Shown: in pieces, positions 22,785 to 56,678 of the stretch
How the letters are laid out: each line of letters begins with the position of its first letter
Position numbering within the stretch: position 1 is the first letter of the stretch
NCBI RefSeq assembly: GCF_038025025.1
Contig: NW_027117342.1
Span: 496,001 to 560,000 of the forward strand
Direction of reading: 5' to 3'
Source of the DNA: Phyllosticta citribraziliensis
Taxonomy: Eukaryota
DNA: 64,000 bases
The notes under the pieces: model-generated
Told to the model about the DNA's origin: nothing
The model's input: only the letters and a program-made list of their open reading frames with translations
Databases searched by the model: none
Position numbers and translations under genes: made by a program

Positions 22785-24152
22785 TCAATCCCTCAGTTGT
22801 CGAATCCAAGGACTAACACGGCTCCTCAAGTCAACTTCCGACTGCGCTTCCGACATGGAGTCGCAAGTGACGGTAATCTGCGTCGTGCGCGTAACTCGAA
22901 CAGGTGACGTTGCCGGCTCGACGTCTTGCAAGCGGACCTGCGAATCCGACTTGTCGATGCTGGGCATGGACACGCCATCCTCCTGCATTTTGTAGTAGCT
23001 CTCAGAGTTGATCCTCGCTTTGGGGTGGGATCCGGAACGCGTGCCGTAGCTTCGAGGGCCGGTCGACTTCTTTTCTCTTTGATGCTTGATGATTTTGGGC
23101 AGGCAGGGTACGCTGAGGATGAGGAATCCGCAGGTCATCTCGGCGCATGCCCAGAAGAGGAGTGGACCGATGTAGTACATGTTGTCTTGTGTCCGAGAAA
23201 AGATGACCGTGTGAACGAGGCGTAAGCAAGCCGAGATGCAAGCGCTGGTCATGTCAGCTTTGGGAAGTCACAGAATCGGGAATACTTACACCAAGCCCAC
23301 GCTGAAGATGATAGAGATGCCCAGTTTTCTCGTTAAACTCATTTGCAGGCTCCAAATGAATTTGTGCGGAAGCAGCGCCATGATGATATCGGTCGCAACT
23401 TGCACGCTCGCCGACGTCAACATGATGTTAGAAAAGCTGTAGCATTTCTTTTGGAGCCAGAATTCCCAAATTGCTTTGCGCTCAGAGCATTGGCCGTTGA
23501 GAAGTCCAATGCACATGATTCCCCAGACACACTGGAAAATGGAAATGGCCACGCAGCACCACCAGAAGGGATTGTCAGACCGAGAAGAGGGAACGAATAT
23601 TCGACACCAATCGAGCAGAATAGCCGTCTTCAACAGCGGCAGTACGGCAGAGTAGCAACAACCGTAAACGAGAATAAGCTAGGGGTATCAGCGCCGGTCA
23701 GCGGTCAGCTTCTGCAACTCACATAGAGCGGCTGAACGAGGTCCCCGTTGTGGAGATTCCACGTGTGCACGAAGTAGCCCGGCGTCGCGATCAAAGCATA
23801 TGCGGTGTACGCCGTGCCCCAGTAGGCCCCCTATCGCTTGTGAGCCCCTCATAATGAACCAGAAAGGACGACAAACGTATGCGCAAATCATCATGGCTGG
23901 AGCGAAGCAACGTCAGCCACGAAAGACCAAAAGTACGGGCAAGTTACCTTCTTCAACGCCAAACTTTTTCTCCACGAACAGCCGGCCGTACGCGCGGAGA
24001 AGGAAGAACATGGTCGCCACGACCATGCAGAATGTCGTCACGAACCACGCGAGGGCATTCTCATTGGGAGGATTGTCGAAATCCGGCGTCACGCCGTCTG
24101 GTGGTGCCAGAGCCGGTTGACGGAGGAAACCCTCGAGGTCTTCAGATGACAT
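22785..24152 (-). CDS. PTH11-like integral membrane protein (fungal rhodopsin/GPCR-like domain, no CFEM)
   Basis: N-terminal PALAPPDGVTPDFDNPP, then LRAYGRL, VHTWN, KTAILL, DIIMALLPHKFIWSLQM..RKLG and WACAEMTCGFLILSVPCLP. Several GT-AG introns. An alternative start lies at 24164. Confidence 0.88.
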
Positions 24153-25254: not shown

Positions 25255-27389
25255 ATGGCAATTGGTGAGCTGGGAATCTAGATGGCACATCGCATGAGCT
25301 GACTTGCGCAAAGGTTACGATCAACAACCTCCCAAAGGAGACTTGGCCCAGTTGATGACACAACACTCCTTACCTGGAATTTCTGATGACATTGATCTGA
25401 GGTCCTTGACTGGCGAAGAACCTACGAGACAAGCGAACGCTGTGCTAGCGAAATTCGACAATGCGTTACGCAGTGGCGATCTCGAGGAGCTCCAGAGCTG
25501 CTTTTACCAAAAAGCGCTTTTCAAAGACGAGCTGGCGCTGACCTGGCACATGCGCACCTTTTCGTCTCCTTCGGTGATTGCAGCAGCTTTTTTGGAGCTT
25601 GAAAAATTGAGGGACGTCAAAAACCTGTCGCTCGTCGATAAAGCCGTGTTCAACGACCTCCCTGGCTTTGTAAGAATGCTCGAATTCGGTGGTAGATTTG
25701 GAGACAAAGCTGACAATTGGCGACAGAAGTACATTGATGCCTGTTTCGAATTCAGCACTGAGAGACCAAACGCCGAATGTCGCGGAAGACTCTGGCTTTT
25801 ACCTGTCAAGACCGACGGAGGACATGTCGAGTGGCAAATTTACATTCTCAGTACCTTTCTCACAGGCTTCAATGGGCACTGCGAGGATCAATCTCTGCTT
25901 TCGCGTCCCAAGCGAACGCTGGAAGACGACTTTGAGACTGACGTATTCATCATTGGAGGCGGAAATGCGTAAGTCTTTGAAGCTTGACAGCCTTGGAAAC
26001 GTTTGAGTCTTGGAAGCATTCGATAGTTTGAGCTGACTTCGACAGTGCGGCCTCCCTGGCTGCGCGCCTGAAGGCCAACGGGATAGACAGCGTCATGGCG
26101 GAGCGCAATGCAGAGGTAGGAGATAATTGGGCTCGTCGATACCAGTTTATGAAATTCCACGTGCCGGCGCGCTTCTGTGACATGCCGTACAGGCGTAAGT
26201 CTCCTTTGAGCAAGCGAGAGTGCTGATTCTGAGGGTTTCAGCATACCCGGACCCAAAACGGATACTCACAAGGGATGACTTGGCTAGTCATCTGAAAAAG
26301 TACGTCCAAGACTTCCAACTGAACGTCATTACGTCGGTGAAAATTGAGTCGACGCACTATCACCAGGAGAAGAAGAAATGGGTCGTCAAGTTCAAAATCG
26401 GCAACAATCCGGCCGTGCGAACAGCGGTGTCGAAGCATCTTGTCCAAGCCACTGGTTTTGGATCGCAGAAGCCCTATCAACCCACACTTGCCAATGTGGA
26501 ATCCTACCAAGGCGTCAATATTCACTCACATCATTACAAGGATCCGGCGTGGTTGAAGCATCATGGGGATGCCGATTTCAAGTCTGTCCTCATCATCGGC
26601 TCGGCGAATACAGCGTTCGACGTGCTCGAGGACCTTCATCGCGCAGGCTTAGAAGCGACAATGGTGGTCCGTTCCGACACCTACGTTGTCCCAGTGGAAG
26701 ACGTCTGTCATCCCCTTTGCCTAGGAGTTTATTCAAACGAAGGATTGAGCGTCGAGACTTGCGACAGGAGCTTTTTGAGCCTGCCAAACTGTGTGAGCGG
26801 ACAGCTGGTCAAGCTGGGTCTCACGAAACTGGCACTGGACAATCCGGACAGGTACACAGCGCTCAGAGAGGCCGGATTTCCGGTCTTCGACAGCTCCGCC
26901 AAAGAGGCGTCGCTGATGTATAATCTGCTCGAAAGGGGTGGCGGTCACTACGTAGACATCGGAGGCACCGAAATCCTAGCAAAGAAGGAAGCACGTGTGA
27001 AGAACTCTGAACCGGTAGCGTACACGGAGAAGGGACTCAGGTTTTCCGACGGCAGCGAGGAAGAGGCGGATGCTATTGTTTGGTGCACAGGATATGCCGA
27101 CAAGGATGCGAGAGAGACGGTAGCCGATATTCTGGGAGGCCGAGACGTTACAGAGGAAGACCACACGATAGGACCGGGCCAGATCGCAGACCGCGTTGAC
27201 CCGTCATGGGGTGTCAACGTTGAAGGAGAGGTCCAGGGCATGTGGAGGCGGCAGTCGAAGCTCGACAACTTTTGGGCCATGGGCGGCTTCACGCAACAGC
27301 ATCGGTGGTACTCCAGAACGCTGGCGTTCCAAATCCAAGCAGAGTTGGAGGGTAAACTGCCGCCGGCTTATCTGTCGACTCCGTGTTGA
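25255..27389 (+). CDS. Flavin-containing monooxygenase (FAD/NADPH-dependent) with N-terminal extension
   Basis: Micro-exon ATGGCAATTG plus intron 25265-25313. Motifs: FAD-binding VFIIGGGNA, GDNWARRY, QATG, IHSHHYK (FMO fingerprint variant), NADPH-binding IIGSANTAFD, and DAIVWCTGY. Confidence 0.9.
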
Positions 27390-27992: not shown

Positions 27993-28400
27993 TCAGCGGC
28001 CCGTACATTCCTCCGACTTCTCAAGGCTTCTGATCAAGTCCCGTTGCGTCTCGATCAGGTCATCCTGCAGCTTGATAGTATCGTCCTTTTCCTTGACCAG
28101 GTTCATCGCAGCCTGAAAGCGCTGAAGGAGCTTGTTGATGACTTCTGTCTTCTTCTGGGCCCGCTCCTCGTATCTTGCCATCGTTGCCTCGGTCTTCTTG
28201 TCGGACGCATGCAGTTGCTTCTGGGAAATCTTGAGCAGGTGCATTTCCCTGTCCCTCTCGTCGCCAAGACGCGCATTCTCCTTCGACAGCTGCGCCATGC
28301 GCTCTGCAAGCTTCATGTTTTGCTCTGAGAGGGTCTCGCCCTTGTCTGAGAGTGTTGGCAATGCGTTAAGTCTAGAGCGTTTGGTACTTACCACAGACAT
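27993..28400 (-). CDS. Small coiled-coil hypothetical protein (~135 aa); 5' structure uncertain
   Basis: Heptad-rich open frame LSEQNMKLAERMAQLSKENARL...LLQRFQAAMNLVKEKDDTIKLQDDLIETQRDLIRSLE. Confidence 0.55.
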   Translation of the reverse strand: MSVVSTKRSRLNALPTLSDKGETLSEQNMKLAERMAQLSKENARLGDERDREMHLLKISQKQLHASDKKTEATMARYEERAQKKTEVINKLLQRFQAAMNLVKEKDDTIKLQDDLIETQRDLIRSLEKSEECTGR

Positions 28401-28823
28401 TGTTCGGCCGGTGCGGCGACATGACAGGAGGGCGGAATCGAGGCTCTGCTGTCCATTTAGTGAGATTTTTGTCTGTCTGAAAACGCGTTCTCGCTTACCC
28501 CGCGAGCGGCTTGGGAGATGCCTGAGCCGCAATTTCGTGCGGTGAGATGTTGCAGTGCTGACGCAGCTGTGTAGTTGTGTAGGGGTGTCGAGAGTAAGCC
28601 TGTGGCCAGGAATACCCGAATGGCCACTGCACAAGCCGTTGACTCACAGCAGCATCGTACTTCACACCGGCAATAGAACCAGTCCAGGCTCTTGGATCCT
28701 GACATCATCACGTCTTTCAATGTAGGCTCAAAGCAGCAATTTTCGTTCCAATTTTGTATCTGCTCAAAGCCCTCCCCAACCTAATGAGCTGCGACCCCGG
28801 CCCACTTCTTCCCATAACTCGAC

Positions 28824-30121
28824 CTAGAAACGCCTGAAGAGTGCCTGAAAATTCGACCGATGTTCGACCAGTTGGGCCAATTCCTCCCTGGAGAATCTCA
28901 ACGGCCATTGGGTATTCCAGTCACCAGTAACGCTCATGCCGAGAGTCGTACTTCCATCCCCCCAGTCAAAGATGACGCGCGTCCCAAGTTTAGTACGGTA
29001 TACTCCACCGACCCATCGAACGCGAAAGAAGACTCCAGATCCATCTGGGCATCTCATGGGCACCGAGAAGCCTCCGTCTGGGAACGCGTACAAATCGGTA
29101 CCTCTCTTGACATTGATTGTCAGGTAGGTCGGAGTGGTGTTGTCAGCGACGCACGTCTGGATTGATTGCGCGTTGACATTGGAGCCTAAACCAAACGTTG
29201 GAATATTCACCGGACCGAAGCTCTGATCGAAAAACTTTTGCCACGTTGGGGCATTCTATTCCACATTGGCCCACCAGTGATCGGTATGGAAGTATGGCTG
29301 TAAGACGCAAAACACATCAAGGCGATTGGTCAGCGTGCCGTAAGTGCCCCGAAATCGACCGTTCTGCGTTAGGGGAATCCACCGGTGCCTGGCTTTCAGT
29401 TGGCTCCTTTTGCCGCGGAAATAATCATCGCAGAGTATGACAGCGGGGTGAGTCGGACTGAGATCCCAGGCTGGGCCTCTCTGATTCGCAAGCGCCAGTA
29501 GGTCGTCCGGACTGGCGATGAATAAAAGCTGCAGCATAGCTGCCAGCAATATGTCCTTGTGGTCAGAGAGAGATATGGGCGGGACTGTTTCTTGTTAGAG
29601 TCTGCTGTTCTTCTCGTGAGGCCACGTACATGTCTCGCTTGAAAACCCTGCTCTTGCGCGACGTTCGGCCCAAAGAGACTTCATCTGAGGATCGAGCGGG
29701 AACAGTTGTGGATTCTTCAGAGTGTATCCCTCATCATGGACCAAAGCTTCAAAAATGTCTGAATCACAATCGTCCCAGAACTTCCGAATCCAAGCCTCCC
29801 AATTGGCTCTATCCACACGCTTGTGCTCCACAGGCGCGCCTATGCAGCCGCCCTTGCCATAATCGGGAAGGAAATTCTCATCAAAAGGAATGACTGCTCT
29901 GAAGTCCTTGGCACCGTTGGCGATGAACCGGCGCCTCTCATGGTCCTTAGAGACCTCCCCGACCTGATTGTGAGGCGATTTCTCTTCAGTGGACTCCAGT
30001 TCCTGGAGAAGCCTCTGGTTCTCTTCGCGCAGAGTTACGCACTCGTCTAGAAGTGTCAGGAAGACGTGCAGACGAGAGGGAGGCGCTACTTACTGCAGGC
30101 GTTTTCTTGAGTGGACGACAT
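28824..30121 (-). pseudogene. Cluster family copy A: coiled-coil N-terminus plus USP-like domain; one in-frame TAG
   Basis: Exons 30121-30094, 30046-29630 and 29584-28824 join in phase: MSSTQENACNECVTLREENQRLL...LWAERRARAGF..F|PPI..MLQLLFIASP..WQKFFDQSFGP..TPTYLTI..VRWVGGVY..IFDWGD..LFRRF. Premature TAG at 29258-29256. Confidence 0.8.
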
Positions 30122-30479
30122 GGCGGAAAATGTGGAAAGTAAAGAGACTGAATGAATGGTAGAGATGCGTGCTGCTGAATACGTTGCGCGAAGGCGTGTG
30201 TTGATGTTGTTGTGATGGTGGCGGTGGTGGTGTTAAAAGGTACATGTAGGCGGGCGCGAGGGCGCAGGTCAGAATGGCCAACGGGAAGGCGCTGGTCCGC
30301 CATCGACAACACCGGAGCCGACCGCAAAACCAAAAATACCGACAAGGGCAGCAAATTTCTGAGCGGGACAAGGATTTCTCTCCCCTCTGCCACATCCGCT
30401 CTCTACAAATCTTGTCGAGGTCAGCCTCTTTGATCAGCACTCCGTGTCAACCACGATACGCATCCCAGCGACGTGTTCT

Positions 30480-31753
30480 CAGCAGTTGAGCTCCGACAGC
30501 TCTTTCGGTCGGCTTGGGAGAAGAGAAGCCTTGAGGCCAAGGTGGAGCTCCTTGAGGCCGAAGTGGAATCGCTAGATGTTGAGCTGCAGGAGGCAAAGAA
30601 CGTGTAAGTGAGTGCGCTTTTTACAGGGACTTGAGATGATTTCACCGATATAGACTGATGTAATCCAAGCGAAGCCAGCTAGTACAGATGACAGGCCAAT
30701 TGGAAAGCCTTTGAACCTCGACTATGTCTTCTTAAGAGCCTGGATGAAAAGGGTCACGGGGACTGCTCATCGCAAGCACCCGCCCCCGGATGTCTTCGAT
30801 CGAGATTCACTTGTGGCGGGTCTCTGGAATGCCCGTCGTAGTCGAGGAGGATTTTCGTGGGATTTGCATAAGCAGTGTAAGTGCCTCTCGCGAAAGAAAG
30901 TCATGTTCTGATCTGACGAGTGAAAGTTCCCCCTATCCAAAACTCTGGCTGTAGCCGCCGAATTATTGTCGGCCTTTTGCTCCAACTGCTCTTCATTGCC
31001 AGTCCGACCGATCTTCTGAGACACGAAAGTCTGGTCGAACCAGCCTCGGAGCCCGGTCCCGAACACCCTGCCGCAAAGCTCTATGTAGCCTGCGATGTTA
31101 CTCGTGATATGGACTCCGGCCATCCTTTGTTTGTGGTATGGAAGAACATCGCACAAAGTCAGTTGTTCCAAGGAGTTTTTGGAACCCTGCAAAACCGCGA
31201 AGGTGGCTTCGAATTGGTTTCTTCAGAAACGGTCGAGATCTGGAGGGCAGATATCTGCTTGAGCGCGTATTTAGACACTACAGACTTTGTTGATTTGGAC
31301 TCTTCTATCCGCTGTCAGCAGTTTCAGACCTGAAAAGATTTCTTTGTATGGAGCTTTGGCCCTCAAGATATACAGCTGTCATGCAGAAGTTCAGTTTTGT
31401 CTCAGCAAATGTTCGTGTATGGACGAATGCTGCCGATGTACCTCACGGTTCTGGGCTGGGCAGGGTCCCAGATGTTCGACCACGAGCTGCATAAGTTTCC
31501 GCAAGACGAAACTATGGTGACACTTCGGTGTCAGGATGGCTCTATCGCGTCTGTTTGCGTCCGCTGGGTCGCCGGAGTCTACAAAATTTGACAAGGACGC
31601 CGCGTCGTCTTCGATTGGGCCGACGGTAGTGACGCCGTGGGGATGAGCATAAGTGGTGACTGGGACAAGGATCCGCCAATCAGGCATTCGAGGGAGGAGT
31701 TGGAAAAAGACACAACATTGGAGGGCATTCTCATGCTTTTCAGGCGCATCTGA
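30480..31753 (+). pseudogene. Cluster family copy B; two in-frame TGA stops, start uncertain
   Basis: A coiled-coil exon (~30480-30604) precedes LWNARRSRGGF. After intron 30877-30926 the frame reads F|PPIQN..LLQLLFIASP..T*KDFFVWSFGP (TGA at the conserved Trp, 31331-33)..LPMYLTV..VRWVAGVYKI*QG (31589-91)..VFDWAD..LMLFRRI*. Confidence 0.8.
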
Positions 31754-32534
31754 ACCGACCCGCTAGGGAAATGGACTCGCAATGGGCCTTCGAATTCGAC
31801 CTTCCCCCCTTCTGAGCATTCACCTCCGGATATACTCTTCTGGGAGATGACTACGCCTCAAGCAAAAGAAACCCGCCACCTCTCGAACAATCGAACCACC
31901 CGCAACGAACGCTACCGGAACAGGCCGTCTCCATGCGGATAGACCCAAAGTCTTTAACTCCGTCTTACTCGCGCTTTTCAAGGTTGTCGGCAACACCTTC
32001 CAACCGACGGTAGCCATTCCTCGAACGACCCCAACAAAAGCCTTTGAACGCAAGTCTTAGCCGCCCTCAGAGGTCACGTAAGGGAAGAATGTGAGGGGAA
32101 TTATCTTTTGGTAGGAACTGAGCTGTAAAACATTAAAGAACACTGAAAAATCGATAAGATAACGCGCTTGCACACTTGGAGCATCACACAATCCTAGAAT
32201 ACAGTATGTGAAGTAGTGTACCGTGGAATTGCAGATTTCCAAACAGATTCTTGCTCGTCAATTGATGCGATGTTTTCTTGCCGAGAGACAGCACCAGCGC
32301 CGCTGCGCCGAGCCACAAGACTGAAATCACCCCACCACCTTTCATTCAAATCTCCAATTTATTTTCTTCCCAGACACACGCAGACAGCTTCGCACCTAAT
32401 CGGCCCGGATAGCCGACAACTACGAAAGCACTCCCATTGCAGCCATGTCTCACTCACCTTTCCATCCTCATCGATTCTCTGCACGTACGCCTAGAGCTAC
32501 GGCACCCTCAGGACCAGAAAACACTTCCCAAAAC

Positions 32535-32928
32535 ATGGCGCCGCCGTTCCCAAAGACCTCAGGTAAGTAAACTGGAATGTTCTCGTGACTTGAGCTTCCC
32601 GCAACCTGCCTGTCTACCATAAACTGCCGACAGGAGGCTGACCTTTTCAGTAAACTACAAGGCATACATGGAAGAGTTCTCCAGGCTGTGCAACGAGAAC
32701 ACCAGGCTTTTGGAGGCCGTCGACCAGTACAAGAACGCGATGGCGGACCGCATCCAGAAGGGCAAAGCGGCGCAGAGCAGCTTGACGTTGTCGCCAATGG
32801 AGCGCGAGGAGCTCATGGCAAAGGGCAAGGCCGCGGAGGAGGAGTACAACAAGGCGGTCAAGGACCGTGAGGGACTTCTGAAGTCCAGGGCAGAGCTGGA
32901 GGCCCTCATCGCCGAGCACTCGAAGTAG
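32535..32928 (+). CDS. Small coiled-coil protein (101 aa), 2 exons
   Basis: Exon 32535-32562, intron 32563-32650 (GTAAGT..GCTGA..CAG, phase 1), exon 32651-32928: VNYKAYMEEFSRLCNENTRLLEAVDQYK...RAELEALIAEHSK*. Confidence 0.72.
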
Positions 32929-33626
32929 TGTGCGTCACTTGAACGCTCCTTGCGAGCAGGACTAGAGAATCGTCCAGACATTTGGATTGGGTAGAAATCA
33001 ATGGGGACAATATCAGTCAAAGCTGTTCAATTGCTGCCATGAAGAAGCCTTATCAACCGAGCACAAATGCCTAATCATCTCATCTGTGCATGCATCTTCC
33101 CACACGTGAACCCCCAAGCTCAAGCCTCTCCCATGTCGTTATCTTCTTGGCCGCCTCCCATGTTCAGTGTCTGGCCTGCACGTGGGGGCACTTGTACCAA
33201 ATTGCGGCATGTATTCCTCAAGCTGATGGAGAGGTTGTGGAGGGGTGAATAGGTCAGCACCTGCTTGTCAAAAACGGATTCAGCTTCGGTCGATGGCGGA
33301 GGTTGGTGGAAAGTCATGTCGAGTGGTCTGCGCCGTGGAATAAAACAGGCGCCTCGGCGAAAAACCCACCTCCGGCATGCCACCACGCGGACCAACTTCT
33401 GTTGACGCTGATCTTGCAAAAGGACACCGACTGTCCTGCGCACCGCTGCAGCCCGGCTCCTACACAACACAATCAAAACTCACCCGCAAAATCCGCAACG
33501 CCAGTCCCACGCTCTCTACTGGCCCAGCCTGGCCCTCCCAAAGCATCACTGCACTCATCTCATACCAAACTCGAATACCTCTCACCTCCGACTTGCCATC
33601 CACTCAAAGCCCACTACGACAAAGCC

Positions 33627-34858
33627 ATGTCGCCAACCATCGACATGAATCCCGAGTACAATGGACTCTTCCTTGCTCCCCTCGCTCAAGGTCCCTCGGT
33701 TCCAGACCTCCACCATGTCTCATAGGCATCGCTTCCTCAAGCTGCCGTTGATGCTCAAGACGAGACGGCCGAGCCGCACATTTCGCTCTTTCACACCGGA
33801 TACAAATACTTGCTAGAGAGCCTGTATCCTCCAGTAGGCGGCGCGAAATACATGTTCATGCGAGAAGGCCGAAACATTCTGGCGGGCATGGGCGAGGAAA
33901 TGGTCTTCAGCATCATGGATGGTACACTCCCGCGAGTGCGCTTCATCGACAGCAAGCCTCAAGCTAAGCGCTTCATTGAGAAAGCGGAAGAGTAATGGAA
34001 GCAGGAGAGCTTAGAACATTCCTACCAGCCTGTTCTTTACGGACAGTACCTTGTGGACTGCCAAGGACGGCCACCCACGGAATCTGAGCTATCCAAGATT
34101 GCTGCGCGTGTGGAGGTTTACATCTCTTTCGATCCAGAAGACATCACGTTCGCAAAGAAGATTGACACCGCTGTGGCTCCACTGGAGGAAGAGGTAAACT
34201 GGAAACGTGGCCATCGCCGATACGTGGAAACAATGGAAGACAAGACAACGATTATCCGATTCATTCGCGCTGTACGCGAAAGTCTGCCCAGCGTGCTCAG
34301 TAACTCTGAGCGCCCACGCAGTCTCGCACAATTTGCCGCTACCAATAATGCGCACCTGTGCTTCAACAACCACCAGCAGCACAAGGGCGGTAGCAAGCTG
34401 ATGTATCTTGTTGAGGCAATCTGCAAGGTCCATTATCCGACATACAAAATCGAGCGGTTCGTCGTGTTCCGGATCTGGGACCAGCAGCAAGTCTGGGTGG
34501 GCGACATCCTGCTCAACAAGATTGGATGGGGCTATGCGTCTTATGGTTTCGGCTTCGATGTTCGTTCGAGGTTTCCTTGTGCCGCAGATACAATCGGAGA
34601 CTTGTCACTTCGGCACTACTGGTGCTGGGAGAAGCAGCCAATCAAGTTCACTCCGCTCTACGGTACGACCAAGAAAAACTCCCCGGCATGAAGCAAACTG
34701 ACTTTTGGATAGCAAACTACGAAAAACAGATTCAGCTGCTGGCTGAATACGTCCGTATAGCCGAAGGTGACTTGACTGTCTTGGAGCCATACTTGAAGGA
34801 GACTTGGGCGTTGCAGGAAGCGAGGGCGGCCAGGGAAGCGACGGAATCTCTGCCATAA
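33627..34858 (+). pseudogene. Disrupted gene of an uncharacterised fungal protein
   Basis: ORFs ending at 33725, 33995 and 34691 are all in one frame, separated only by TAG (33723-25) and TAA (33993-95). The sequence is globular and protein-like (QPVLYGQYLVDCQGRPPT; HRRY; HQQHKGGSKLMYLVEAIC; FVVFRIW; GYASYGFGF). A probable frameshift leads into the frame ending at 34858. Confidence 0.65.
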
Positions 34859-35191
34859 GTACAGTCACTGTACAGTCACTGTAGGTACGGCAGCTTGGTG
34901 GAACAGAGGAGCCACAAGATGAAAAAGTCGAACGTCGATGCGAATGCTGGGCAACACCTTGCGCGAGCGTCGAAGCAGATCAATCACCAAACACGGTATT
35001 AGCGAACGGGAGAAATTTCAAGGGCAGGCCAGAAGAACCCAAAAGCCCACAATGATTTGATTGACCGAGCCGTAGTCCTCCTTCCAGCAGGCCCCTTCCC
35101 CACCCAGAAATGCCAGCCCCAGATGCCGAAATTCATTCAAGCGCCTGTGTCCGCGAATGCGTGAAAAGCAGATGGCTCCATGCGTACCCGT

Positions 35192-36182
35192 CTAGACGCG
35201 CCTGAAAATCATGAAAAACTCCGTCATCGGCCCGCTCATCTCCTGCTCCACCTCTTCCCTTGAACGTCTCGTTGGCGGGTCTGTGGACCAGTTTCCTGAG
35301 TTGCTGCAACCAAGTGAACCTTCCTGATCGCCCCAATCGAACACCAGCCTCGAATCGACCGACGGAGTTGAGTAAATGCCTCCAACCCATCGCACTCGCG
35401 TACTGGCCAAAAGGTCGTCTTCTCGGCGAAATGTCAGGAGGAAGTCGTTCTGTGGAAATTTGTCCAAGTTCTGGTCTGATTCGACATGACAAGAGACGGT
35501 CAGATACGGCGGTAGGTTTCCATGTTCGAAAAAGGGCTGAATCGACTGCATTGATTCGATCCACGGCAGTTTGAGGTCGTATGGGCCCAAGCAACCGTCG
35601 AAAACATCCTGCCAGCAGTCGTCGAAGGAATCTCTCGAGTGGATATCGCACAAGTTGAGTTGGGAATCATCAGGGAGTTTCCTTGGCTTGACATCGAAGT
35701 CCTCGTTGTGGATCAACAAGCCATTCCTGCCACGGAAAAGTCTTCCTTTCGCGACTGCGGGCCAGCACATGTGGAGTGAAACGAATGCCGTGTATTCACA
35801 GCGTTCTTCGTAAAAGAAATCCGGAAGCTCGAGTGTGTGATGTTTCTCGTCGAAAGTCCAGGTTCCTTCCTTGAAAGGGCCGGCTAATTCGTACAAAGCC
35901 TCTGGCGATGCAACGAACAACGATTGAAGCGCGTAAGCAAAGCCTTTGTCCATTTTGTCGACATCGATTGGTGGGACTGTTGACGGTTAGCTTATTCTAC
36001 AATTCACGGTGAAGACACGTACAAGGCTCATCAAATCCTCCACTAGTGACTCTTGCAGCCCACTGGCTCTCCGTGTGCTCGTCTGGTGAGATCAGAGGTG
36101 GATGATCACGCTCGTTCTCCAGGCGGTTCTCTGAGACACGTCTACGCCATTCAGTCGCATATTTGGCCAATATTTCCTCCAT
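35192..36182 (-). CDS. Cluster family copy C (open from 36182; may have further upstream exons)
   Basis: Exon 36182-36023 (..SQWAARVTSGGFDEP), phase-1 intron 36022-35977, then F|PPIDVD..ALQSLFVASP..WQDVFDGCLGP..LPPYLTV..VRWVGGIY..VFDWGD..MIFRRV*. Confidence 0.82.
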
Positions 36183-37440
36183 TTTAAGACGAAGTTAGAG
36201 ATTTTAGAGGGCCTACACTGCTTGCGGATCAAAGCCGAGGGACGATGCTGGATTTAAGTAGGAAGCAGTGGTTTGCGCTCACCAACGTCTGCTCGCAGCA
36301 CAAGCAACTCCATCAAGCACTACAAAGCAAACATTCAACCTTGTAAAGCCGGGAAACTCTGAACTTGAAAAGCAAAAGACTGAAATCGGATCACTACGAG
36401 CCCATACCGTAGTCAAGTTTGTGGTAGATCGGCCTCAGACTGTGGTGTAGCTAGCGGAAGAGTTTGCCAGAAATTGCTGCATAGAAATCCCTCGCAGCCG
36501 ACAAACATTGAGCCTGGCAGTAGTTGCCCGGATTGTCTCCCTGTTTCGCCGCCCCCGGCGGGAAGATTCTGAGATGCTTCCTTCATGGCTGCACCTAGAA
36601 CCTTCGCAGCTTATGTATTGCTCAGCTTGACCTTCCCATTACGCAGCTCGGATAAATGTACAGACTGCAATACGAGAGGTGCGCTATCTTCAGGAAGGGT
36701 GGATGCAACATGAACATTGCCTTCCGTTTGTGAGAGCCGCGCTCTTCGCTCGCTTAGCTCCATCCCGCCCATCCTGCCGGCAGCTCTCTCCTCACGGAAC
36801 AGCACCCATATCCCAATGATTGCATCCATTACAGCCTCAACCTGAAATAAAATGTCAAAACGGTGTATCGAAAGCTCTCTAACTCTTGGCCATCAACGCA
36901 AGGAACGAAAGACGCGCCTCCTTGGCCGCCCGAGAGCAACGCCGCGCTCGACCCGCGAAGAGACTCTCAGGCTTCAGTAGCTGTCAACACACCTGTCAAA
37001 TTTTCGACCGACCTTCTTGCGACTGCAGTAGCATGTCCACAGCAAATACTAAGATAGCTGGCAAAATCCACGCATCCGAGGGCTGCAGTCTCCTGCGCAA
37101 GGGCCGTCGCATCCGCGTCTCCACCGCTGATCCCTGCAAACTGCCTTTTGGCGTTAGATTCCCCCGTCGCTTAGCCCAAGCCAGCAGTTCCAAGCCCCTT
37201 GCTTCCGAACCCAAAGTTGACTGCCATCGTGACAACCGGTCGTGGATAAGAAGATGCGCGGTCTTCAAACGTAGAATTTTTGGAGACTGATGCATCGTCG
37301 CTCTCCAGGCGCGTGCAGGTTGTTTACTGCCTTTGTGGCGACGGATTTGGCCGAGAGTGTCGGTGGTATGGACAAAGACCTGCAGGCCGGCAATTTTGCG
37401 GACGGTGCGAAGTGCTGTGGGCTTTTAGACTGGGGTTTGA

Positions 37441-37510
37441 GCGGCTTTGAACTTTTGCGGCTTTAAACTTTTGCGGCTTTAAACTTTTGCGGCTTTAAAC
37501 TTTTGCGGCT
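37441..37510. repeat. 16-bp tandem repeat (GCGGCTTTAAACTTTT) x ~4.4
   Basis: Read directly; the first unit has one substitution. Confidence 0.92.
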
Positions 37511-37519
37511 CTGGTATAC

Positions 37520-38035
37520 CTTTCGAGGATGTCGTGAATGCGGTTCAGTCATTCTGCGTCAAGGTATGAGGTTGTCTGGCACCTGGGCATGGGCTCTGGC
37601 TATTCGAGAACTTTCACAATGAACTTGTTCAGAGATGGGGCAGGTCACGGAAAAGCATGGCGAGTGATCAATTGGAGCTACCAAAGATTTGAGTTTTGAG
37701 ACGAGCTACTCGTGGTCCTGCTCTTAACAGAGCTCCTCCTTGACATCCTCCTTGAGTTATTCCTTGCCTTGGAGCTTTTTTTCGAGCTCGTCGATCTCAG
37801 CCAGGAGTTTGGCTTGGATCTTGAGGTAAAATACGATCTGCTGATTGATGAGAGCCTTGCGCTCCTCGAGCGCGGCCTGGAGTCTTTTGATCTGGTACAG
37901 CAAAGCCAGCCTGGTCTTGGTCAGTTTGTGTCTTTTGGTGAAATAAAGAGGGTGAATCACTCACATCGCAGGATTATCATTGAGGTTAGAGGCAAGAAAC
38001 TCCTGCTCCTGGCGTGAGTGCATGTTGCACATGAT
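37520..38035 (-). pseudogene. Decayed coiled-coil reading frame
   Basis: After ORF 37757-37960 (..LLAEIDELEKKLQGKE) the charged frame continues through TAA, TAA and TAG (*LKEDVKEELC*EQDHE*LVSKLK). A short upstream exon ends in GTGAGT. Confidence 0.5.
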
Positions 38036-38538
38036 GGGTAGGTAGAGTAGGTAGTTGTGAGAGTTGGTTCGAGGAGATGCTGTCCCTGCCCAAAATTTCA
38101 GTCAGTCCAGTTATCATGGGCTGCCACAGTGGACGAACGTACGAAGGATGGAAGCGCCGGGGTTGAAGAGGAGAGAGTCATGGCGGCGTCGAACGAGGCT
38201 TTATACGGCGTTGTAGGCGCTGTGGACGTCGGAGGCCACGGTTTATCCGGTGGCCGCATGCGCTTGTTGTTGTCAATGAGGAAGGTACGGCATGCCGCCC
38301 ACGTCCGGGTGAATAAACAGTGACTCTTTGCTCTCCCCTGCGCCTGCGCATTTCAACCTGAACTTCTCCACCATCCACTCAACCAACTTCTCCAGAGTAC
38401 GCATGAATGCTCCATGTACAAAAGTCTATACTGATGACTTTGGAATAGTCTGCTCCAGCAAGTCTCGCCGCCTCTTATATCGCCAAGCTGCTGCCCGGAT
38501 TGCTTCTTCAAACACGTACGACACTTCGATTGTCTGAC

Positions 38539-38991
38539 ATGGAAGTTTCTGCTGATGGGTTTAGAATGTCTTCGTCCGACTTTGCCAATCAGTCTGGTCT
38601 TGGCGCTAGCTCTAGTTTGGGAAACCACGGCCGGCGACTTGTCATCAGCACCACAATCATCACCATCGTCACAACAATGGACTTGGATACGGGTCGCACT
38701 CAGGCGGCGAGTACCACCACCACGACCGAAGAGCGCAAAGTCACCTTTGACGACGGTTCTGGAAGTAGCGACGGCAGAAACAAGGACAACAGCGCCACCA
38801 CGGGCCTCGATGGCCAGGAGCCCCTCGTCGAAGACGGCGGCGCCGACGCCAACAACGACGGCAACGGCAAGGTTGAGACTACCAGTGCGAAAAAGCGCAA
38901 GCGAGACCGCTCTAGGAACAGTGCACGCAAGAAGGCCAAGACGTCGAGGAAAGAGATGCGCGACCTCAAGGGCGCCTGGGACTGGATGTAA
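38539..38991 (+). CDS. Low-complexity acidic/basic ORF with NLS-like KKRKR..RKKAK; possibly an upstream exon of copy D
   Basis: The open frame has coding-like GC3 and a possible GT donor at ~38988. The link to copy D is not resolved. Confidence 0.4.
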   Translation: MEVSADGFRMSSSDFANQSGLGASSSLGNHGRRLVISTTIITIVTTMDLDTGRTQAASTTTTTEERKVTFDDGSGSSDGRNKDNSATTGLDGQEPLVEDGGADANNDGNGKVETTSAKKRKRDRSRNSARKKAKTSRKEMRDLKGAWDWM

Positions 38992-39534
38992 TTCCTGACA
39001 TCTGGCCGTTTCTTCCTTTTTCTCCGCGGCAAATTGTGCAAATACAAATCTGTTCTTCCGCTGAGCTCCTATCACTCAATCTGCCCACTTGTTTAATGGT
39101 TTCGAGGTTGTTGATGACAAGCACTCGTCGATTCGAAATTCGTGACTCCGGCGGGAAATGAGCACTTTTCTTTGAGGTTTTCCACTGCCTCTGACTGCAT
39201 CTGCTATACAGCTTGATACCCCCAAGGTGTCTTGCTGTGTGCATGTCTTCTTTAATTTGCTGATAGTGCATTTTTTCACAAAGCTGAATGCTCTCACGTT
39301 CTCTAGTCCCAACCCGTTCTCTCCGGGTTCCCAGTATTTTCCAAATAGGTGAATGCTCCCAATCCGACGCCGCCACTCTCGCGCCAATGTTGTTGTTCTC
39401 GCCGCCGGCAACGCCGCTGCAGCCTATGGATCGAACTTTCTCTCCTGCTCTAGACGCGACACCATCCTTCGGCTCAATCCTCATTTGCCTCTGGGTCTTT
39501 CTACAACCGGTGGTTCGCCAAACTCCATCCGACC

Positions 39535-40517
39535 ATGGAGCACGCCATGGGGGAGCAAAAGTGGAAGGTCTTTGTCTGGAGCATTCGATTGTCTTCCATC
39601 GCCCGCGTTATCGACCCCGAAGCCGAAAGTCAGCTAGACTTCAACCTGCGGGTCCGCAATGGTGGACTCCTAAGTTGTGAGCGAGCATCTTGAAGCGCTT
39701 TGTCTTCGTAGCTAACAAGACAGTCCCCAAAATTGAAACAACGACGGAAATCCAAGCCGAACTTGAGGCAGCTCTCCAGCTTCTTTACGTCGTCGCCCCT
39801 AACGTGGCTGTGTGGTTCCGCGGTGCTGATTTCAACAATCCCTGGAAGCTCGATGCGGACCACCCGGCCGACAAACTGCTCGCCGATGAGCCTCTCATCG
39901 GCAACAACTACATGATGCAGGCATGGAAGGCGGTGACCCACAACTTTCGCTTCGCTGGCAAGTTCGGTGTCCTTGTCAATCACCAGCACACAAACCAAAA
40001 TCCCGCGTCCAGCCTTGTGGCCAACCCGGATACCATCGGTCTTTGGGAGACCTCCGGTACCTCCAGGGCGCTCTTTTGGCAAGAGTTCTTCGACAGCTGC
40101 TTTGGTCCGGTCAACGTCACTCTCCCGTCCAATCCGACGGTCGTCTCAGTCCAGTCCTACGTCACCGGCGGCGAATACCTCCCGCCGTTCCTCACCATCG
40201 ATGCCTTTCGCGGCCGCGTACCCTTGCAGCAGCTGTTCCCGCACGAGATATACCCCATCGTCATGCGCACCATGGACGACAACCAGTTGATCAAGACGTA
40301 CGTCAAGTGGGTCGGCGGCGTGTACACGATGACACTCGACGAGCGCCCGAGGCTCGTCACGATTTTCGACTGGGCCAACGGCAGCGGTGACCTGGGAGCT
40401 AGCATCTCTGGCCACTGGAACATGGCTCTGCCCACCAAGTGGAAGCGCAATGAGTTCGCCCGATTCTGCGCTGCTCACGGAGCGCGTCCGCTGCTTATGG
40501 TGTTCAGGCGCGTCTAG
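39535..40517 (+). CDS. Cluster family copy D (intact; true start may be upstream)
   Basis: An exon ends ..LDFNLRVRNGGLLS, followed by phase-1 intron 39677-39723, then F|PKI..ALQLLYVVAP..WKLDADHPA..WQEFFDSCFGP..LPPFLTI..VKWVGGVY..IFDWAN..LMVFRRV*. GC3 is strong. Confidence 0.85.
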
Positions 40518-41080
40518 CGCGGGAGTTGACACTTGGTTGGATGGACTTGGTAGAGCACAGCAGAAGTGATGAGATATCGGGAGCATTCAATACAACATGC
40601 ACACTTGGAAGTCGCGTTGAGGCACAGAAAGCATCCATCGCGGATGCCTAGAGCTTTTGACAAGGCATTGAGAGCGTTCATCATGGCATGGAATCATTTG
40701 ACTTGGATTGAATACCCAACTCCATGAGGTAGACCTGCTGTTACAGTAGCAATCACCTCATAACCATCCTTTGCACAGAAAACCGCGTCCGCCTTTTGGC
40801 GAACCGAAGGTTTTTTTTAACACCTGCAAGTCCGAACGTTTTTCTTGCATTCCCTCAAAGCCCTGCTCCGTTGTCTTCTTCCTCGACTAACCAGCAACTT
40901 TGTAGCCTGCATGATTCATACCAACGAGTGACCAAAGCCGGCATGTTCGACTTCCTCAAGTCCCATCACTACGCCGCGGGTATTTGACCCGTTGTACTCC
41001 AATTCTGCTTTGTCTGAAAGAAGTCGATTCTGTGTGCGAATATCGTGGGGGATGCTCGAAGGTCAGAGATTTTCGAGGCC

Positions 41081-42141
41081 TCAGCCGTGCGCAGAGTGGT
41101 TCAGGCCTTCTGTTGGGCCTGTCTCAACGCGCCTGAAAATCATCAGGTCGGCCGCGATCGCAACACTGCGGATCAGACTGTAGAACAACGGCCTGCTGTA
41201 TCTCTGAGGAGGATGATTGGCCCAGTCTGCGTTGAAGCTCTTGCCCACACTTCGGTCACTGTCGCCCCAATCGAAGATCACACGAGGAGATCCTCCGCCG
41301 ATTCGATAGATGCCGCCAACCCAGCGCATGCGGGTCACCGCCAGAGAGCCGTCTTCGGTGAGGAAACGAACAAGGTAGTCTTTTTCCGGGAAAAGTTGGC
41401 AACGTAACGTTTGACCGACCAAATGGGGCATTCCAATCGTGAAGTATGCCGGGAGCTGGGTGGGCTTGACGAATGGCTGCGAAGCCGTAATGCAGGCGTT
41501 TCCTGTGATGGACTGGAGCTCTGGGGCCATGAGAAGTTCGAAAAATTGGTCCCAGCTAGTCCAGTTTCTGTGGATGCAGGCAGAGCTCCAAAGCTGTGCA
41601 TCTTCGCTGTCGACTGCGATCTTGGACTCGTTGTTTCGGAGGTGGATCATGACACCAAAGTGGGCGCGAAAAAGCTTGCTCGTCGCAACAGCATCCCAGG
41701 GCACAAGCTGTGGAATTGGTGGTTGATGGTTGTCGACGGCGCGCTGAAATCTGACTGCCGGATGGTCCTCATCAAGGTCCCAGGCACTTCCGTACGGCTT
41801 CGCCAACGAGAGGCATTCTTCTGGAGATGCAATATAAAGCAGTTGAAGTGCAGCGGCGAGGTGAGACTTGCAGTTGATAGGAGGGACTATGAAATGTTAG
41901 ATCATGCGCATAACATGACGATCAAGCACTTACACTGCTCAGACTTGAATCCATCTTGACCATTCCTGGCGGCCCAGAGGTCTTGCGCGTACTTTTGAGG
42001 CTCAACAGGCTTTGCGGTGATGATTCCCTGCTGGCGCTCATGCAGAATCATTTCTAGCCATGAGAGCACGTTCTTACAACCAGGGTTGCCATGATCTTTT
42101 TTGTCGCTCATATTGTCGCCGTGAGAGGGTAGATTGGCCAT
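41081..42141 (-). CDS. Cluster family copy E (open; start uncertain; 14-aa C-terminal extension)
   Basis: ..DLWAARNGQDGFKSEQ, phase-1 intron 41933-41887, then F|PPINCKSHLAAALQLLYIASP..WDLDEDHPA..WDQFFE..LPAYFTI..MRWVGGIY..IFDWGD..LMIFRRVETG.. Confidence 0.82.
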
Positions 42142-44989: not shown

Positions 44990-46715
44990 TCAAGGTTTCC
45001 ACACCCGACTCAGCACGACGTAGACGACGAAGCTCGTCAGAATACCGTACAAGTAGCCTAAGCTGTAAATGTGCTTTGCGCCGCTCGACATGCTACTGGA
45101 GCTTGTCGCAGCAGCTAAGCCAGGGACGAGCGGCACCCAGCCAATGGTCCAAGCGACCGCAGCGCGCCAGTTTGTTCCCCAGCGATTGTAACGGTAGCGA
45201 CCTTTGGGAAGATAAAGCTCATGCACATCGTAGTGTCGATCATGGATGAGCCAAAAGTCGGCGAGCAGTACGCCTGTGATTGGGGCAAGCCAAATGGTGT
45301 AGCCGTCCATGAAGTTGAGGAGTGCTTCGGCAGAAGACAGGATGTTCCAAGGTGTCAAGGCCCATGCACCGATGAAAGCAATCACATATTGTCCTCGTCG
45401 GAGGTTGATGTACTATCCTCGTCAGCGGTTACCATCTGGGAGGCTCCCACCTTTGACCTACTTTTGGAAACATGGCATTCAAGTCATTCGCCGCGGAGAT
45501 GCAGTTTGCACCAATGTTCTGTCCCGTCAGCGCCGAAGTTCAAAGACGGAGGGTACTTACGGCTCCCATTTGCCCAAGCAACAGCGCAGCAGCCGCAAAG
45601 ACGGCCCCGGCACGAGCCTGAGATGACCCGTTCCAGTTGTTCATGATCTTCAAGGGATCCCACTGCAGTTCGCCGTATAAAACGTTCGCCGAGCCGACGA
45701 TTATCATGCCCATCGCGGCCATGAAGACGAAAATGGCGGGAATGATGAAGAGCTGAACGTAAGTCATCCTCGGGCTCTTTGCATAGCGCGTAAAATCATT
45801 GATGTTGACTGCCAGGGTTCCGTAATTGCCCATCATAGCATTCATTCCGCTCATGAAGGTCCACCCAAGCGCCGCTCCCTTGCTCGTATTACCACGGTTG
45901 AATACTGGATTATCGGTTCCTCCGCCGGTGTTTGTACAGGCCCAAATTACCATGCCGAGGATTGCAGGCAAGACGAGGAGAGACTTTAGCGCAAAGAACC
46001 AGCGCAAATTCCGAGGATGGATCCAATGAAAGGGGAGTATGACGACAAAATAAATAAAGTACGAAATCATCATCTCCGTGGTAATGTTGGCCGATTCGGG
46101 GAGGTGGTTTGGTATGTTGGCGAACCTTGGCCATATTGCCCGGATGATTGTGTCGACGCACTCGGCACCGGTATACGTGTTGATGCCGTACCAAAATGCG
46201 GCGACAATCATGCGCACAATGACCATGGCGAAGGAAAAGTAAAAGCCAAAGGAAGCTCGGCTTTGAATCGTGTACGGGATGTGGAAGCGCGCGCCAATGA
46301 CACCATTGAAAGTGAGGGCGACGGTCATGATTGCGTGGCCGAGCGCAATCGTTAACAGTACCAGCTTCCAGGACAATCCCATGGACCATAGGGAGCTACC
46401 AAGGCGCAAATTGCCCGGGGCCGTGGCATCGTTCGTCCAGTAAAAGACATCTGTCTGTGTTAGACGCGCGACAGCGAAAGGGACAACTTACAATTCCAAG
46501 TGGTCCAATTTCTCTGCTCCGGCGGCGTCGGATCGAGGTCTAAAAGTCAGCAAAGCCTCGAAATTCTGAGCCCACTTACCAGCGTTTGTCCATTTGCCCT
46601 CGCTTCCTGGCTGCGGCTGCAGCTGGATCCTCTTAATCAGTCGCCCCCAAGTCGTCTCCTCGCGCAAGTCCGCAACGCTAACGTTCCCGTGCGGTTTTGC
46701 CTCGATGTCCGCCAT
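44990..46715 (-). CDS. NCS1-family nucleobase/allantoin/uracil permease (Fur4/Dal4-like)
   Basis: WTNA|DLDPTPP..W, GARFHIPYTIQSRASFG, WYGINTYTG, NINDFTRYA, NPRRGQY, PWNIL, LADFWL and GTNWRA motifs. Multi-exon. Confidence 0.93.
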
Positions 46716-55345: not shown

Positions 55346-56678
55346 TCAAGGCACTCGCTGAAAGAACCGCCGCTCGCTCTCACTGACGCTGGCTGCGTCT
55401 GACGCCTGTGCTGAAAAATAGCTCGACGCGTTGCGCTCCTGCTGCTGCGACATGACTGTCGTCACCTTGATGCCCTCGTCCGAGCTTTCCGACGCGTCGT
55501 CTTGCGAGCGCGCCTTTGCGATTCTGGTCTGCACGGCGCTCTTGCGGCGATCGTGCGATTTGTTGTTGGAGTCGAGCGGCTTGAGCCCATACAACTCGCC
55601 AACCTCGCCGCGCGAGCGCCAGCTACGACTATGGTAGCGGCCGGAATTGGGGTTGGAGCGGCTGCCGGAGCCAATGGTGGACAGCAGGTGCGGAAAGTAG
55701 CGCGAGATGAGCACCTTGAGCGAAGGCAGCGAGGCGCACATGATGGCGACGTTGCATTCGACCGTCGACCAGAGCAGGGCGCCCGTGTTGTCGTACGTCA
55801 CGTCGTTGGACTTGCTGACCTTGGCCAGCGATTTGAGACGCAGAATCGCCGTGACACCGCCGCTACAGCCCCTTTGTCAGCTTATTTCATCGTCGTGGTC
55901 ATGCCGACTCACAATGATCCAAACGCAAAAATGGCCATCAGCGCAATCTTCTGCCGCTTGTGTATCTTGAGTGATTTGAGCACCGGCATCGGTAGTACAA
56001 TCACCAAAAAGTCGGAGAAGATGTTGATGCCCGCGTGCGTAAACCACACTGCCTCAAAATCCAAGCAGCTGCCGCTTGTTGGATCCAGGGCGCGGCTCCA
56101 AAAATAGTGGATCGGTTTGCAGTTGAATATGTTCATAAAGCCAGCCACAAACGTGTACGTCACGACAAAGGTAATCGTCGCATAGCACGCGATGCGCATT
56201 GCTTGCTGCGTGCCAAAGATTCGGAGGTATTGGAGGAGAATCGAGAGTTTGGTGAGGCAAAGGGAGACGAGGTAGATGAGGATGCTTGCAAAGACGTACT
56301 GAAAGGTCAGCGGGGTCTTGTTGAATGGAGAAGACTCACTTGAAAGACTTTGGCCGTTTCGCTTGGTGGGTTCTCCCAGACATGATTTCCCAATCCATGG
56401 CGAACCTCTGCTTCAATTAGCACCAGTCGAACTCCACTCGAATAAAAACTTGCCTTGACTTGCTACCACGGCCAGCACAATGTTGAGTATCTAAACAGTT
56501 AGCCACGCCTTTATTCGACATGTCCACATACCGATGACGAGGATATAATGACATCGTCCCACCCAACGCCTCCCACCAAAACGAGCCGACTATACAGCCG
56601 CAGAGCAACCACAATCGACGCAACAACGGTAACAATGATGCAAGTCACCAGCGTCTGTTTGCCCTCCGCCGTGACCAT
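55346..56678 (-). CDS. PTH11-like integral membrane protein (no CFEM)
   Basis: VALRLYSR..GWDD, GLGNH, KLSILLQYLRIF, CKPIHYFW, NIFSDFLVIVLPMP..QKIAL and WSTVECNVAIMCASLP motifs. Multi-exon. Confidence 0.9.

Follow-up and report, generated by a model that had tools for sequence, protein, structure and literature searches.

Ubiquitin-specific proteases (USPs; Pfam PF00443, UCH; MEROPS family C19) include members whose fold has outlived the canonical catalytic triad, among them the UCH-like domain of Pan2/USP52 and Sad1/USP39. Both are single-copy, pan-eukaryotic proteins, in which this domain is fused to WD40 and exonuclease domains (Pan2) or to a zinc finger (Sad1). Known pseudodeubiquitinases serve as scaffolds or allosteric partners, according to the passages of PMC10919355 that deal with them. 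Here we describe five loci, A to E, in a 64,000-nt stretch of the genome of Phyllosticta citribraziliensis (NCBI RefSeq assembly GCF_038025025.1, contig NW_027117342.1, positions 496,001 to 560,000, forward strand), which we call the window and within which all positions below are numbered. Three of these loci are intact and two have premature stops. Their products are probably Phyllosticta-restricted pseudodeubiquitinases, with the fold of a USP but neither its catalytic Cys nor its catalytic His.

The five loci are tandem paralogs of one protein family (Table 1). The proteins of C and D align across 274 columns with 30% identity (BLASTP, E = 1e-30), and C, D and E can be aligned throughout their large exons (31–35% identity, 49 invariant columns). 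Identity between paralogs is 30–40% across the five loci, and 31 columns are invariant in an alignment of all five with one ortholog, in which the stops of A and B are read as X. All five loci also share a phase-1 GT..AG intron of 45–50 nt that interrupts the F codon of FPPI and carries a branch-like CTAAC or CTGAC site. The loci were read from stop-to-stop open reading frames (ORFs) on both strands of 28–43 kb and from three-frame translations. A hidden Markov model (HMM) of the family was then run on all 1552 six-frame ORFs of at least 25 aa in the window and matched only eight ORF pieces, all from the five loci (E = 1e-119 to 2e-24). Because the HMM matches are confined to these loci, with the next-best match at E = 0.32, the window contains five members and no sixth. 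These results bear out an earlier note on this DNA, made from the sequence alone, which had described five loci with the same ordered motifs on alternating strands and had called for an alignment and an HMM of the spliced proteins; the similarity is significant beyond short motifs. The coordinates given there also hold, except for the start of B, which is annotated at 30576 and not at ~30480.

Locus C is intact and encodes 314 aa, and our reconstructed model is 100% identical to the public P. citribraziliensis protein P0001. The ORFs of D and E are likewise intact; E has two candidate start codons and a 14-aa tail beyond the FRRV that usually ends the proteins of the family. A and B lie head to head, with start codons 454 bp apart, and A has an N-terminal extension of ~150 aa. 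Upstream of D, an ORF at 38449–38991 (+) has a basic KKRKR-type stretch (especially at 38788–38940) and matches the N terminus of the annotated P. citriasiana D ortholog P0045 (428 aa) with 52% identity over 58 aa. Locus D may have extra upstream exons that carry a nuclear-localization-like signal, or a small conserved gene may sit at this position.

The structural assignment comes from predicted models. An AlphaFold2 model of C, built from a 22-row alignment, has a predicted local distance difference test score (pLDDT) of 85.2 and a predicted template modeling score (pTM) of 0.87. A Foldseek search of this model against the Protein Data Bank (PDB) gave 282 matches at E ≤ 0.001, which are USP or Ubp8 chains throughout among the matches listed, the best being USP35 (E = 4e-9, probability 1.0). 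VIA-align, which is independent of Foldseek and was run against 48,161 representative chains, also placed USP35 at the top (Z of 12.6, root mean square deviation of 4.2 over 236 residues). Ranks 1–35 of that comparison are all USP-fold chains, the 34 after USP35 having Z of 9.8–12.3 and including Pan2 and Sad1/USP39; the next group, coronavirus PLpro, has Z of at most 8.1. A second model, of the D-lineage P. capitalensis protein P0005 (30% identical to C; pLDDT of 81.7, pTM of 0.86), gave the same ranking, with USP35 first at Z of 13.4 over 234 aa. In the viral structure library BFVD, giant-virus USPs were the top matches (E = 1.4e-8, TM of 0.54/0.59), and an alignment-free language-model search listed UCH (PF00443) clusters at 0.89–0.90, the clusters nearest to the family being giant-virus proteins. 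The predicted domain comprises ~265 residues, of which ~235 align to USPs; residues 1–49 of C, encoded by exon 1 and containing the WxxRxxxxGF motif, are modeled as two helices that do not belong to the USP-aligned core.

The catalytic Cys was located through four entries whose titles name the mutated residue: USP35 C450S, SARS-CoV-2 PLpro C111S, MHV PLP2 C1716S and IBV PLpro C101S. Counted from the first aligned residues, these cysteines map to residues 64, 64, 65 and 64 of C and to residues 73, 74, 74 and 74 of P0005. In both proteins, the mapped site is the first residue of the LQLL helix, seven residues ahead of a conserved Q. The model of C places K64 at this position, and across the family the corresponding column is occupied by K, K, R, E, E, N, G, D, T, Q, A, S, S, E, I and I. 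Cys or His occupies at most 7 of the 14 near-full-length rows in any alignment column; the one that reaches 7 of 14 for His, at residue 99 of C, lies in the helical N-terminal part and not in the sheet. The conserved polar residues of the sheet are D267 (13 of 14 rows), D240 (12 of 14) and S278 (12 of 14), and D270 is conserved in 10 of 12 rows. We read these models as indicating that the family has lost the catalytic Cys and His of USPs and could not use a Cys–His mechanism.

Several observations weigh against this reading. Pfam finds no UCH domain in the eight ORFs (E ≤ 1) or in 22 members of the family (E ≤ 10), a profile search of PDB sequences gave no match at E ≤ 10, and hhalign comparison with one giant-virus USP and with an eight-row USP profile, run in local and in global mode, returned probabilities of 0.2–0.3. 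Because sequence methods fail, homology to USPs rests on the fold and a few motif echoes and not on sequence statistics. The fold in turn rests on predicted models from one shallow alignment of 22–23 rows, and the models of C and P0005 are not independent of each other. The mapping of the Cys presumes that there is no gap in the first 10–14 aligned residues, and the His is shown only as not conserved. Finally, USP39 and USP52/Pan2 may cleave ubiquitin through non-canonical residues, as the relevant passages of PMC10919355 have it, so a missing triad does not prove a dead enzyme. The earlier description of the family as unrecognized stands at the level of sequence, where Pfam, PDB sequences and profile–profile comparison find nothing, and gives way at the level of the fold, which is predicted to be that of a USP without catalytic Cys and His.

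Two alternatives follow from these points. If the fold call were an artifact of the shallow alignment, the family could represent a genuinely novel fold or else an unrelated papain-like protein, as might be suspected of models fed by rows from a single genus and of a family for which every sequence-based comparison with USPs has failed. We consider this quite improbable, given pTM of 0.86–0.87 in two models of proteins that are only 30% identical, the alignment of ~235 residues to more than 35 USP chains at Z of 10–13, well above the next group at Z of 8, and the language-model search, which used no alignment and also pointed to UCH clusters. The second alternative accepts the fold and holds that the proteins work as hydrolases through a non-canonical site made of family-conserved residues, Asp and Ser among them. 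The conservation of D267, D240, S278 and D270 would suit such a site, and activity has been claimed for USP39 and USP52 despite the missing triad (PMC10919355, in the same passages). However, no Cys or His is conserved anywhere in the family, and the nucleophile position holds chemically unrelated residues. We also know of no USP that relies on Ser or Asp, which counts further against active hydrolases, and we regard this alternative as improbable. Our preferred interpretation is still that of USP-fold proteins that lack the catalytic residues.

By the sequence searches, the family is known only from Phyllosticta. The family profile, scored in a single pass against 1.84 billion representative proteins, gave 16 matches at E ≤ 0.001, 13 of them at E ≤ 1e-30. 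Without exception, these 16 belong to Phyllosticta (P. citrichinensis, P. capitalensis, P. citriasiana, P. paracitricarpa and P. citribraziliensis), with one representative placed in the genus through its P. capitalensis cluster mates. The same collection is rich in other fungi, among them members of the same order, Botryosphaeriales (Neofusicoccum and Lasiodiplodia), as judged from a search with the neighboring flavin monooxygenase (FMO). A word-based homolog search with C retrieved nothing beyond C and one P. citrichinensis ortholog, and scans with a pattern derived from the alignment of C, D and E gave 414 pattern matches in JGI metagenome contigs and 22 in IMG/VR viral contigs, none of which was confirmed. 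Public records name members of the family ‘hypothetical’ or ‘uncharacterized’. Among the papers listed for the P. citribraziliensis genome, no title or abstract opening mentions the family, and a literature search pairing Phyllosticta with deubiquitinase found nothing related. The lineage restriction proposed in the earlier note is thus upheld by a profile that met no broadly conserved family and only Phyllosticta proteins.

The array is older than the species that carry it. In a maximum-likelihood tree of 19 rows, the orthologs joined to C come from P. citrichinensis and P. paracitricarpa (100/99), those joined to E from P. citrichinensis and P. citriasiana (99/98), those joined to D from P. 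citriasiana and P. capitalensis (96/96) and those joined to B from P. citrichinensis (100/99); A is placed as the sister of B (90/93). Five label changes on the tree are needed to account for the five rows of P. citribraziliensis. Because each paralog of the window groups with orthologs of other species, the duplications predate the radiation of these species, in agreement with the old duplications proposed earlier. GenBank accession order follows gene order in the window (FMO, KAK7538212; A, ...213; B, ...214; C, ...216). The corresponding orders are FMO ...012, B ...010, C ...009 and E ...006 in P. citrichinensis and FMO ...877, D ...881 and E ...882 in P. citriasiana, in a second strain of which D adjoins FMO; in P. 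capitalensis, members ...147, ...152, ...153 and ...154 surround FMO ...149. Taking accession order as adjacency in these other assemblies, the array would lie beside FMO in three further species, which brings the species with this synteny to four.

Table 1 Coordinates of the five family members and of the genes bordering the array
Feature	Position in window	Strand	Details
Locus A	28824..30121	-	USP-fold exon 28824-29584; intron 29585-29629 (45 nt, phase 1)
Locus B	30576..31753	+	Intron 30877-30926 (50 nt, phase 1)
Locus C	35192..36182	-	Exon 1 36023-36182; intron 35977-36022 (46 nt); exon 2 35192-35976
Locus D	39535..40517	+	Exon 1 39535-39676; intron 39677-39723 (47 nt); exon 2 39724-40517
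Locus E	41081..42141	-	Exon 1 42111 (or 42141)-41934; intron 41887-41933 (47 nt); exon 2 41081-41886
Flavin monooxygenase gene (FMO)	25298..27386	+	P0057, 634 aa; flanks the array; syntenic anchor in four Phyllosticta species
NCS1-type permease exon	45543..46487	-	Transp_cyt_pur, E = 9e-54; other border, as named in the earlier note

By their identities, the members of the array diverge faster than the neighboring FMO, with one exception. Full-length FMO orthologs are 85% (P. citrichinensis), 81–82% (P. citriasiana) and 71–72% (P. capitalensis) identical to the FMO of the window. For the family, C stands at 72–76% and B at 72% in P. citrichinensis; in P. citriasiana, D is at 56% and E at 45%, and in P. 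capitalensis, D is at 46% and C at 37%. The exception, which tells against fast divergence as a property of every member, is E in P. citrichinensis, which diverges no faster than FMO (85% versus 85%). Among P. capitalensis strains, proteins within 90%-identity clusters, which do not group alleles of lower identity, differ by 0.3–6.1%: four members of the array differ at 2.3–6.1% of residues, 1.5–4 times the 1.6% of FMO, and two members away from the FMO-side cluster differ by 0.3%, part of these differences stemming from differing gene models.

Copies have also been lost or damaged elsewhere in the genus, where truncated orthologs include P0007, P0012/P0045 and P0014. Same-species sequencing runs agree with the window, and contigs of a related organism span the whole array, mostly at 90–95% identity, with the B region replaced. 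In one contig of that relative, the middle of B (30721–31475) is exchanged for 737 other letters, and a second, shallower contig follows the window; the relative also lacks 831 bases between C and D (37366–38198). An old array that turns over by duplication, fast divergence and loss fits birth-and-death evolution, which the earlier note had also proposed and which gains from the truncated or broken copies in several species.

The earlier note had overlooked the premature stops in A and B. Locus A has an in-frame TAG at 29256–29258, which cuts the predicted fold after its helical half, and is annotated publicly as a truncated protein of 257 aa (P0016) that ends at this stop. Locus B has two in-frame TGA codons, at 31331–31333 and 31589–31591, and is annotated as a truncated protein of 213 aa (P0015), also ending at the stop. 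The first TGA of B takes the place of the invariant W in WxxFF; the other five rows and the P. citrichinensis B ortholog P0007 all have W there. None of the three stops falls within a plausible intron. The truncated A protein is recorded from two assemblies, so a read error does not account for the stop in A. Beyond the stops, the frames of both loci stay open and keep all family motifs without a frameshift, and the breaks would therefore be recent or read through.

The annotated proteins P0007 (B lineage of P. citrichinensis) and P0012/P0045 (D lineage of P. citriasiana) both break off at ...VFD, immediately ahead of the W that is invariant in FDW. Together with the first TGA of B, three breaks may sit on Trp codons, a pattern that may be due to chance because Trp codons offer the easiest route to a stop.

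Readthrough could take the form of sexual-stage adenosine-to-inosine (A-to-I) mRNA editing, by which the stop of A, and less plausibly those of B, would be turned into Trp in the way that editing restores pseudogenes of Fusarium; the protein would then work only in sexual development. The stop in A is a TAG preceded by T, the codon corrected in Fusarium and Neurospora (PMC10776026, in the passages on editing), the frames beyond the stops of A and B keep every motif without a frameshift, and the first TGA of B falls exactly on an invariant W. However, in those same passages of PMC10776026 the correction concerns UAG only and is described for Sordariomycetes, with a separate origin in Pezizomycetes, Dothideomycetes being outside what they cover. 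Both stops in B are TGA, and the predicted RNA folds at the three stops are no more stable than those of shuffled sequence (z of 0.35, 1.87 and −0.06). In addition, Trp codons are the commonest one-step source of stops, so that chance alone can be expected to put a stop at a W. We therefore consider editing highly improbable and treat A and B as copies interrupted by premature stops.

What the three intact copies would do can be approached from their predicted fold. Because no signal-peptide-like N terminus is seen in them, they are presumably intracellular. They may bind, and not cleave, ubiquitin, a ubiquitin-like protein (Ubl) or another partner, as known pseudo-USPs do; binding of a partner, possibly ubiquitin or a Ubl, is a tentative proposal by analogy, which we hold as a possibility and no more firmly. 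A complex prediction of C with giant-virus ubiquitin scored 0.00 and, having been run without alignments or controls, has no bearing on binding.

The earlier note had seen in the array the pattern of allorecognition, meiotic-drive or other conflict loci, a reading for which we obtained no supporting result. Such a locus, encoding allorecognition, meiotic-drive or antiviral decoy proteins diversified by an arms race, would be compatible with a pseudo-USP fold, and several features point in its direction: a tandem array confined to one genus and diverging faster than FMO, the repeated truncation of its copies and the excess of strain differences in four array members of P. capitalensis (2.3–6.1%) over FMO (1.6%). 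That excess is only 1.5–4-fold, however, and part of it reflects differing gene models. No HET, NACHT or other such Pfam domain is present in the eight ORFs or the 22 members, and five P. capitalensis strains show no deeply diverged allelic classes, with the limit that 90%-identity clusters would file distant alleles elsewhere. Orthologous lineages are, moreover, stable across species, unlike typical drive genes. On balance, we think a conflict locus unlikely. The same low expectation applies to a more specific scenario, in which the proteins would be genus-specific ubiquitin or Ubl decoys (dead USP ‘hands’) in conflict with mycovirus or transposon proteins, or would belong to a self/non-self or spore-killing module, with one copy perhaps deployed in the sexual stage through stop recoding. 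The interpretation that we retain is that of pseudodeubiquitinases whose intact copies would act inside the cell.

Other genes of the window lie between and around the loci. A multi-ORF gene occupies 32623–34858 (+) between B and C (ORFs 32623–32928, 33726–33995, 33996–34691 and 34415–34858) and fills the slot KAK7538215 by accession order; it has no Pfam match, no homolog among longer proteins and no informative language-model (Atlas) neighbor (best, 0.88). Between FMO and A, a coiled-coil-like ORF of 216 aa (27996–28643, −) lacks a Pfam match and resembles none of the other coiled-coil ORFs nearby, and the accessions of a second assembly leave one gene slot between FMO (...475) and A (...473). 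That the coiled-coil ORFs of the region make up a second repeated family was considered and rejected, as there is no significant pairwise similarity beyond the family’s own motif. Two fungal rhodopsin-domain (PF20684) genes flank the array, at 22788–23678 (−) and 55349–56412 (−).

Compared with catalytic USPs such as USP35, USP1, USP2 and USP18, the family shares the predicted fold over ~235 residues (Z of 12–13) and the helix with a conserved Q seven residues past the nucleophile position. It differs from them in having no detectable sequence similarity to them and neither the catalytic Cys nor a conserved His, and in its confinement to a tandem array in one genus. The short USPs of giant viruses (Nucleocytoviricota) are of similar size (259–284 aa) and have the fold in common. 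Those that we fetched as genuine references have Pfam UCH matches with E of about 1e-26 to 1e-53, and in their alignment C30 and Q37 are invariant and stand as far apart as the mapped site and the Q of the family. In contrast to the family, the short viral proteins are recognized by Pfam UCH (E of about 1e-26 to 1e-45) and have retained C, H and D, and they are structurally no closer to it than cellular USPs are. A search for relatives of one fetched giant-virus USP returned only itself. The last strand has a basic pair in both groups, within FRRV in the family and YKRV in the short giant-virus USPs. Three of the latter (L133, L139 and L141; 271–284 aa) end in ...LLIYKRV, ...LLYKRC and ...LLFKRV, which resemble the LMxFRRV of the family; this C-terminal likeness is a motif echo that has no statistical support.

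The closest parallel lies with the UCH-like domain of Pan2/USP52 and with Sad1/USP39, which, like the family, combine a USP fold with the lack of a canonical triad and which appear among its structural matches (Pan2 entries 4czw, 4q8g, 4xr7 and 6r5k at Z of 10.5–11.9; Sad1/USP39 entries 4msx and 6ah0 at Z of 9.8–10.9). Orthology to either is unsupported, as the Pfam domains that accompany them are missing and the profile matches only Phyllosticta proteins. In contrast to Pan2 and Sad1, the family is multi-copy, fast-evolving, limited to one genus and devoid of other Pfam domains. If our assignment is correct, it gives a structural identity to ‘hypothetical’ proteins in a genus of citrus pathogens and endophytes, where array copy number differs between species and could mark them for comparison. 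It would also describe a USP fold that has drifted past the reach of profile methods, without its catalytic residues, and has multiplied as a fast-evolving tandem array, which makes the array a concrete test case for what pseudodeubiquitinases bind. Known pseudo-USPs are single-copy, ancient and part of conserved machines, and a multi-copy, fast-diverging set suggests a different use of the same fold.

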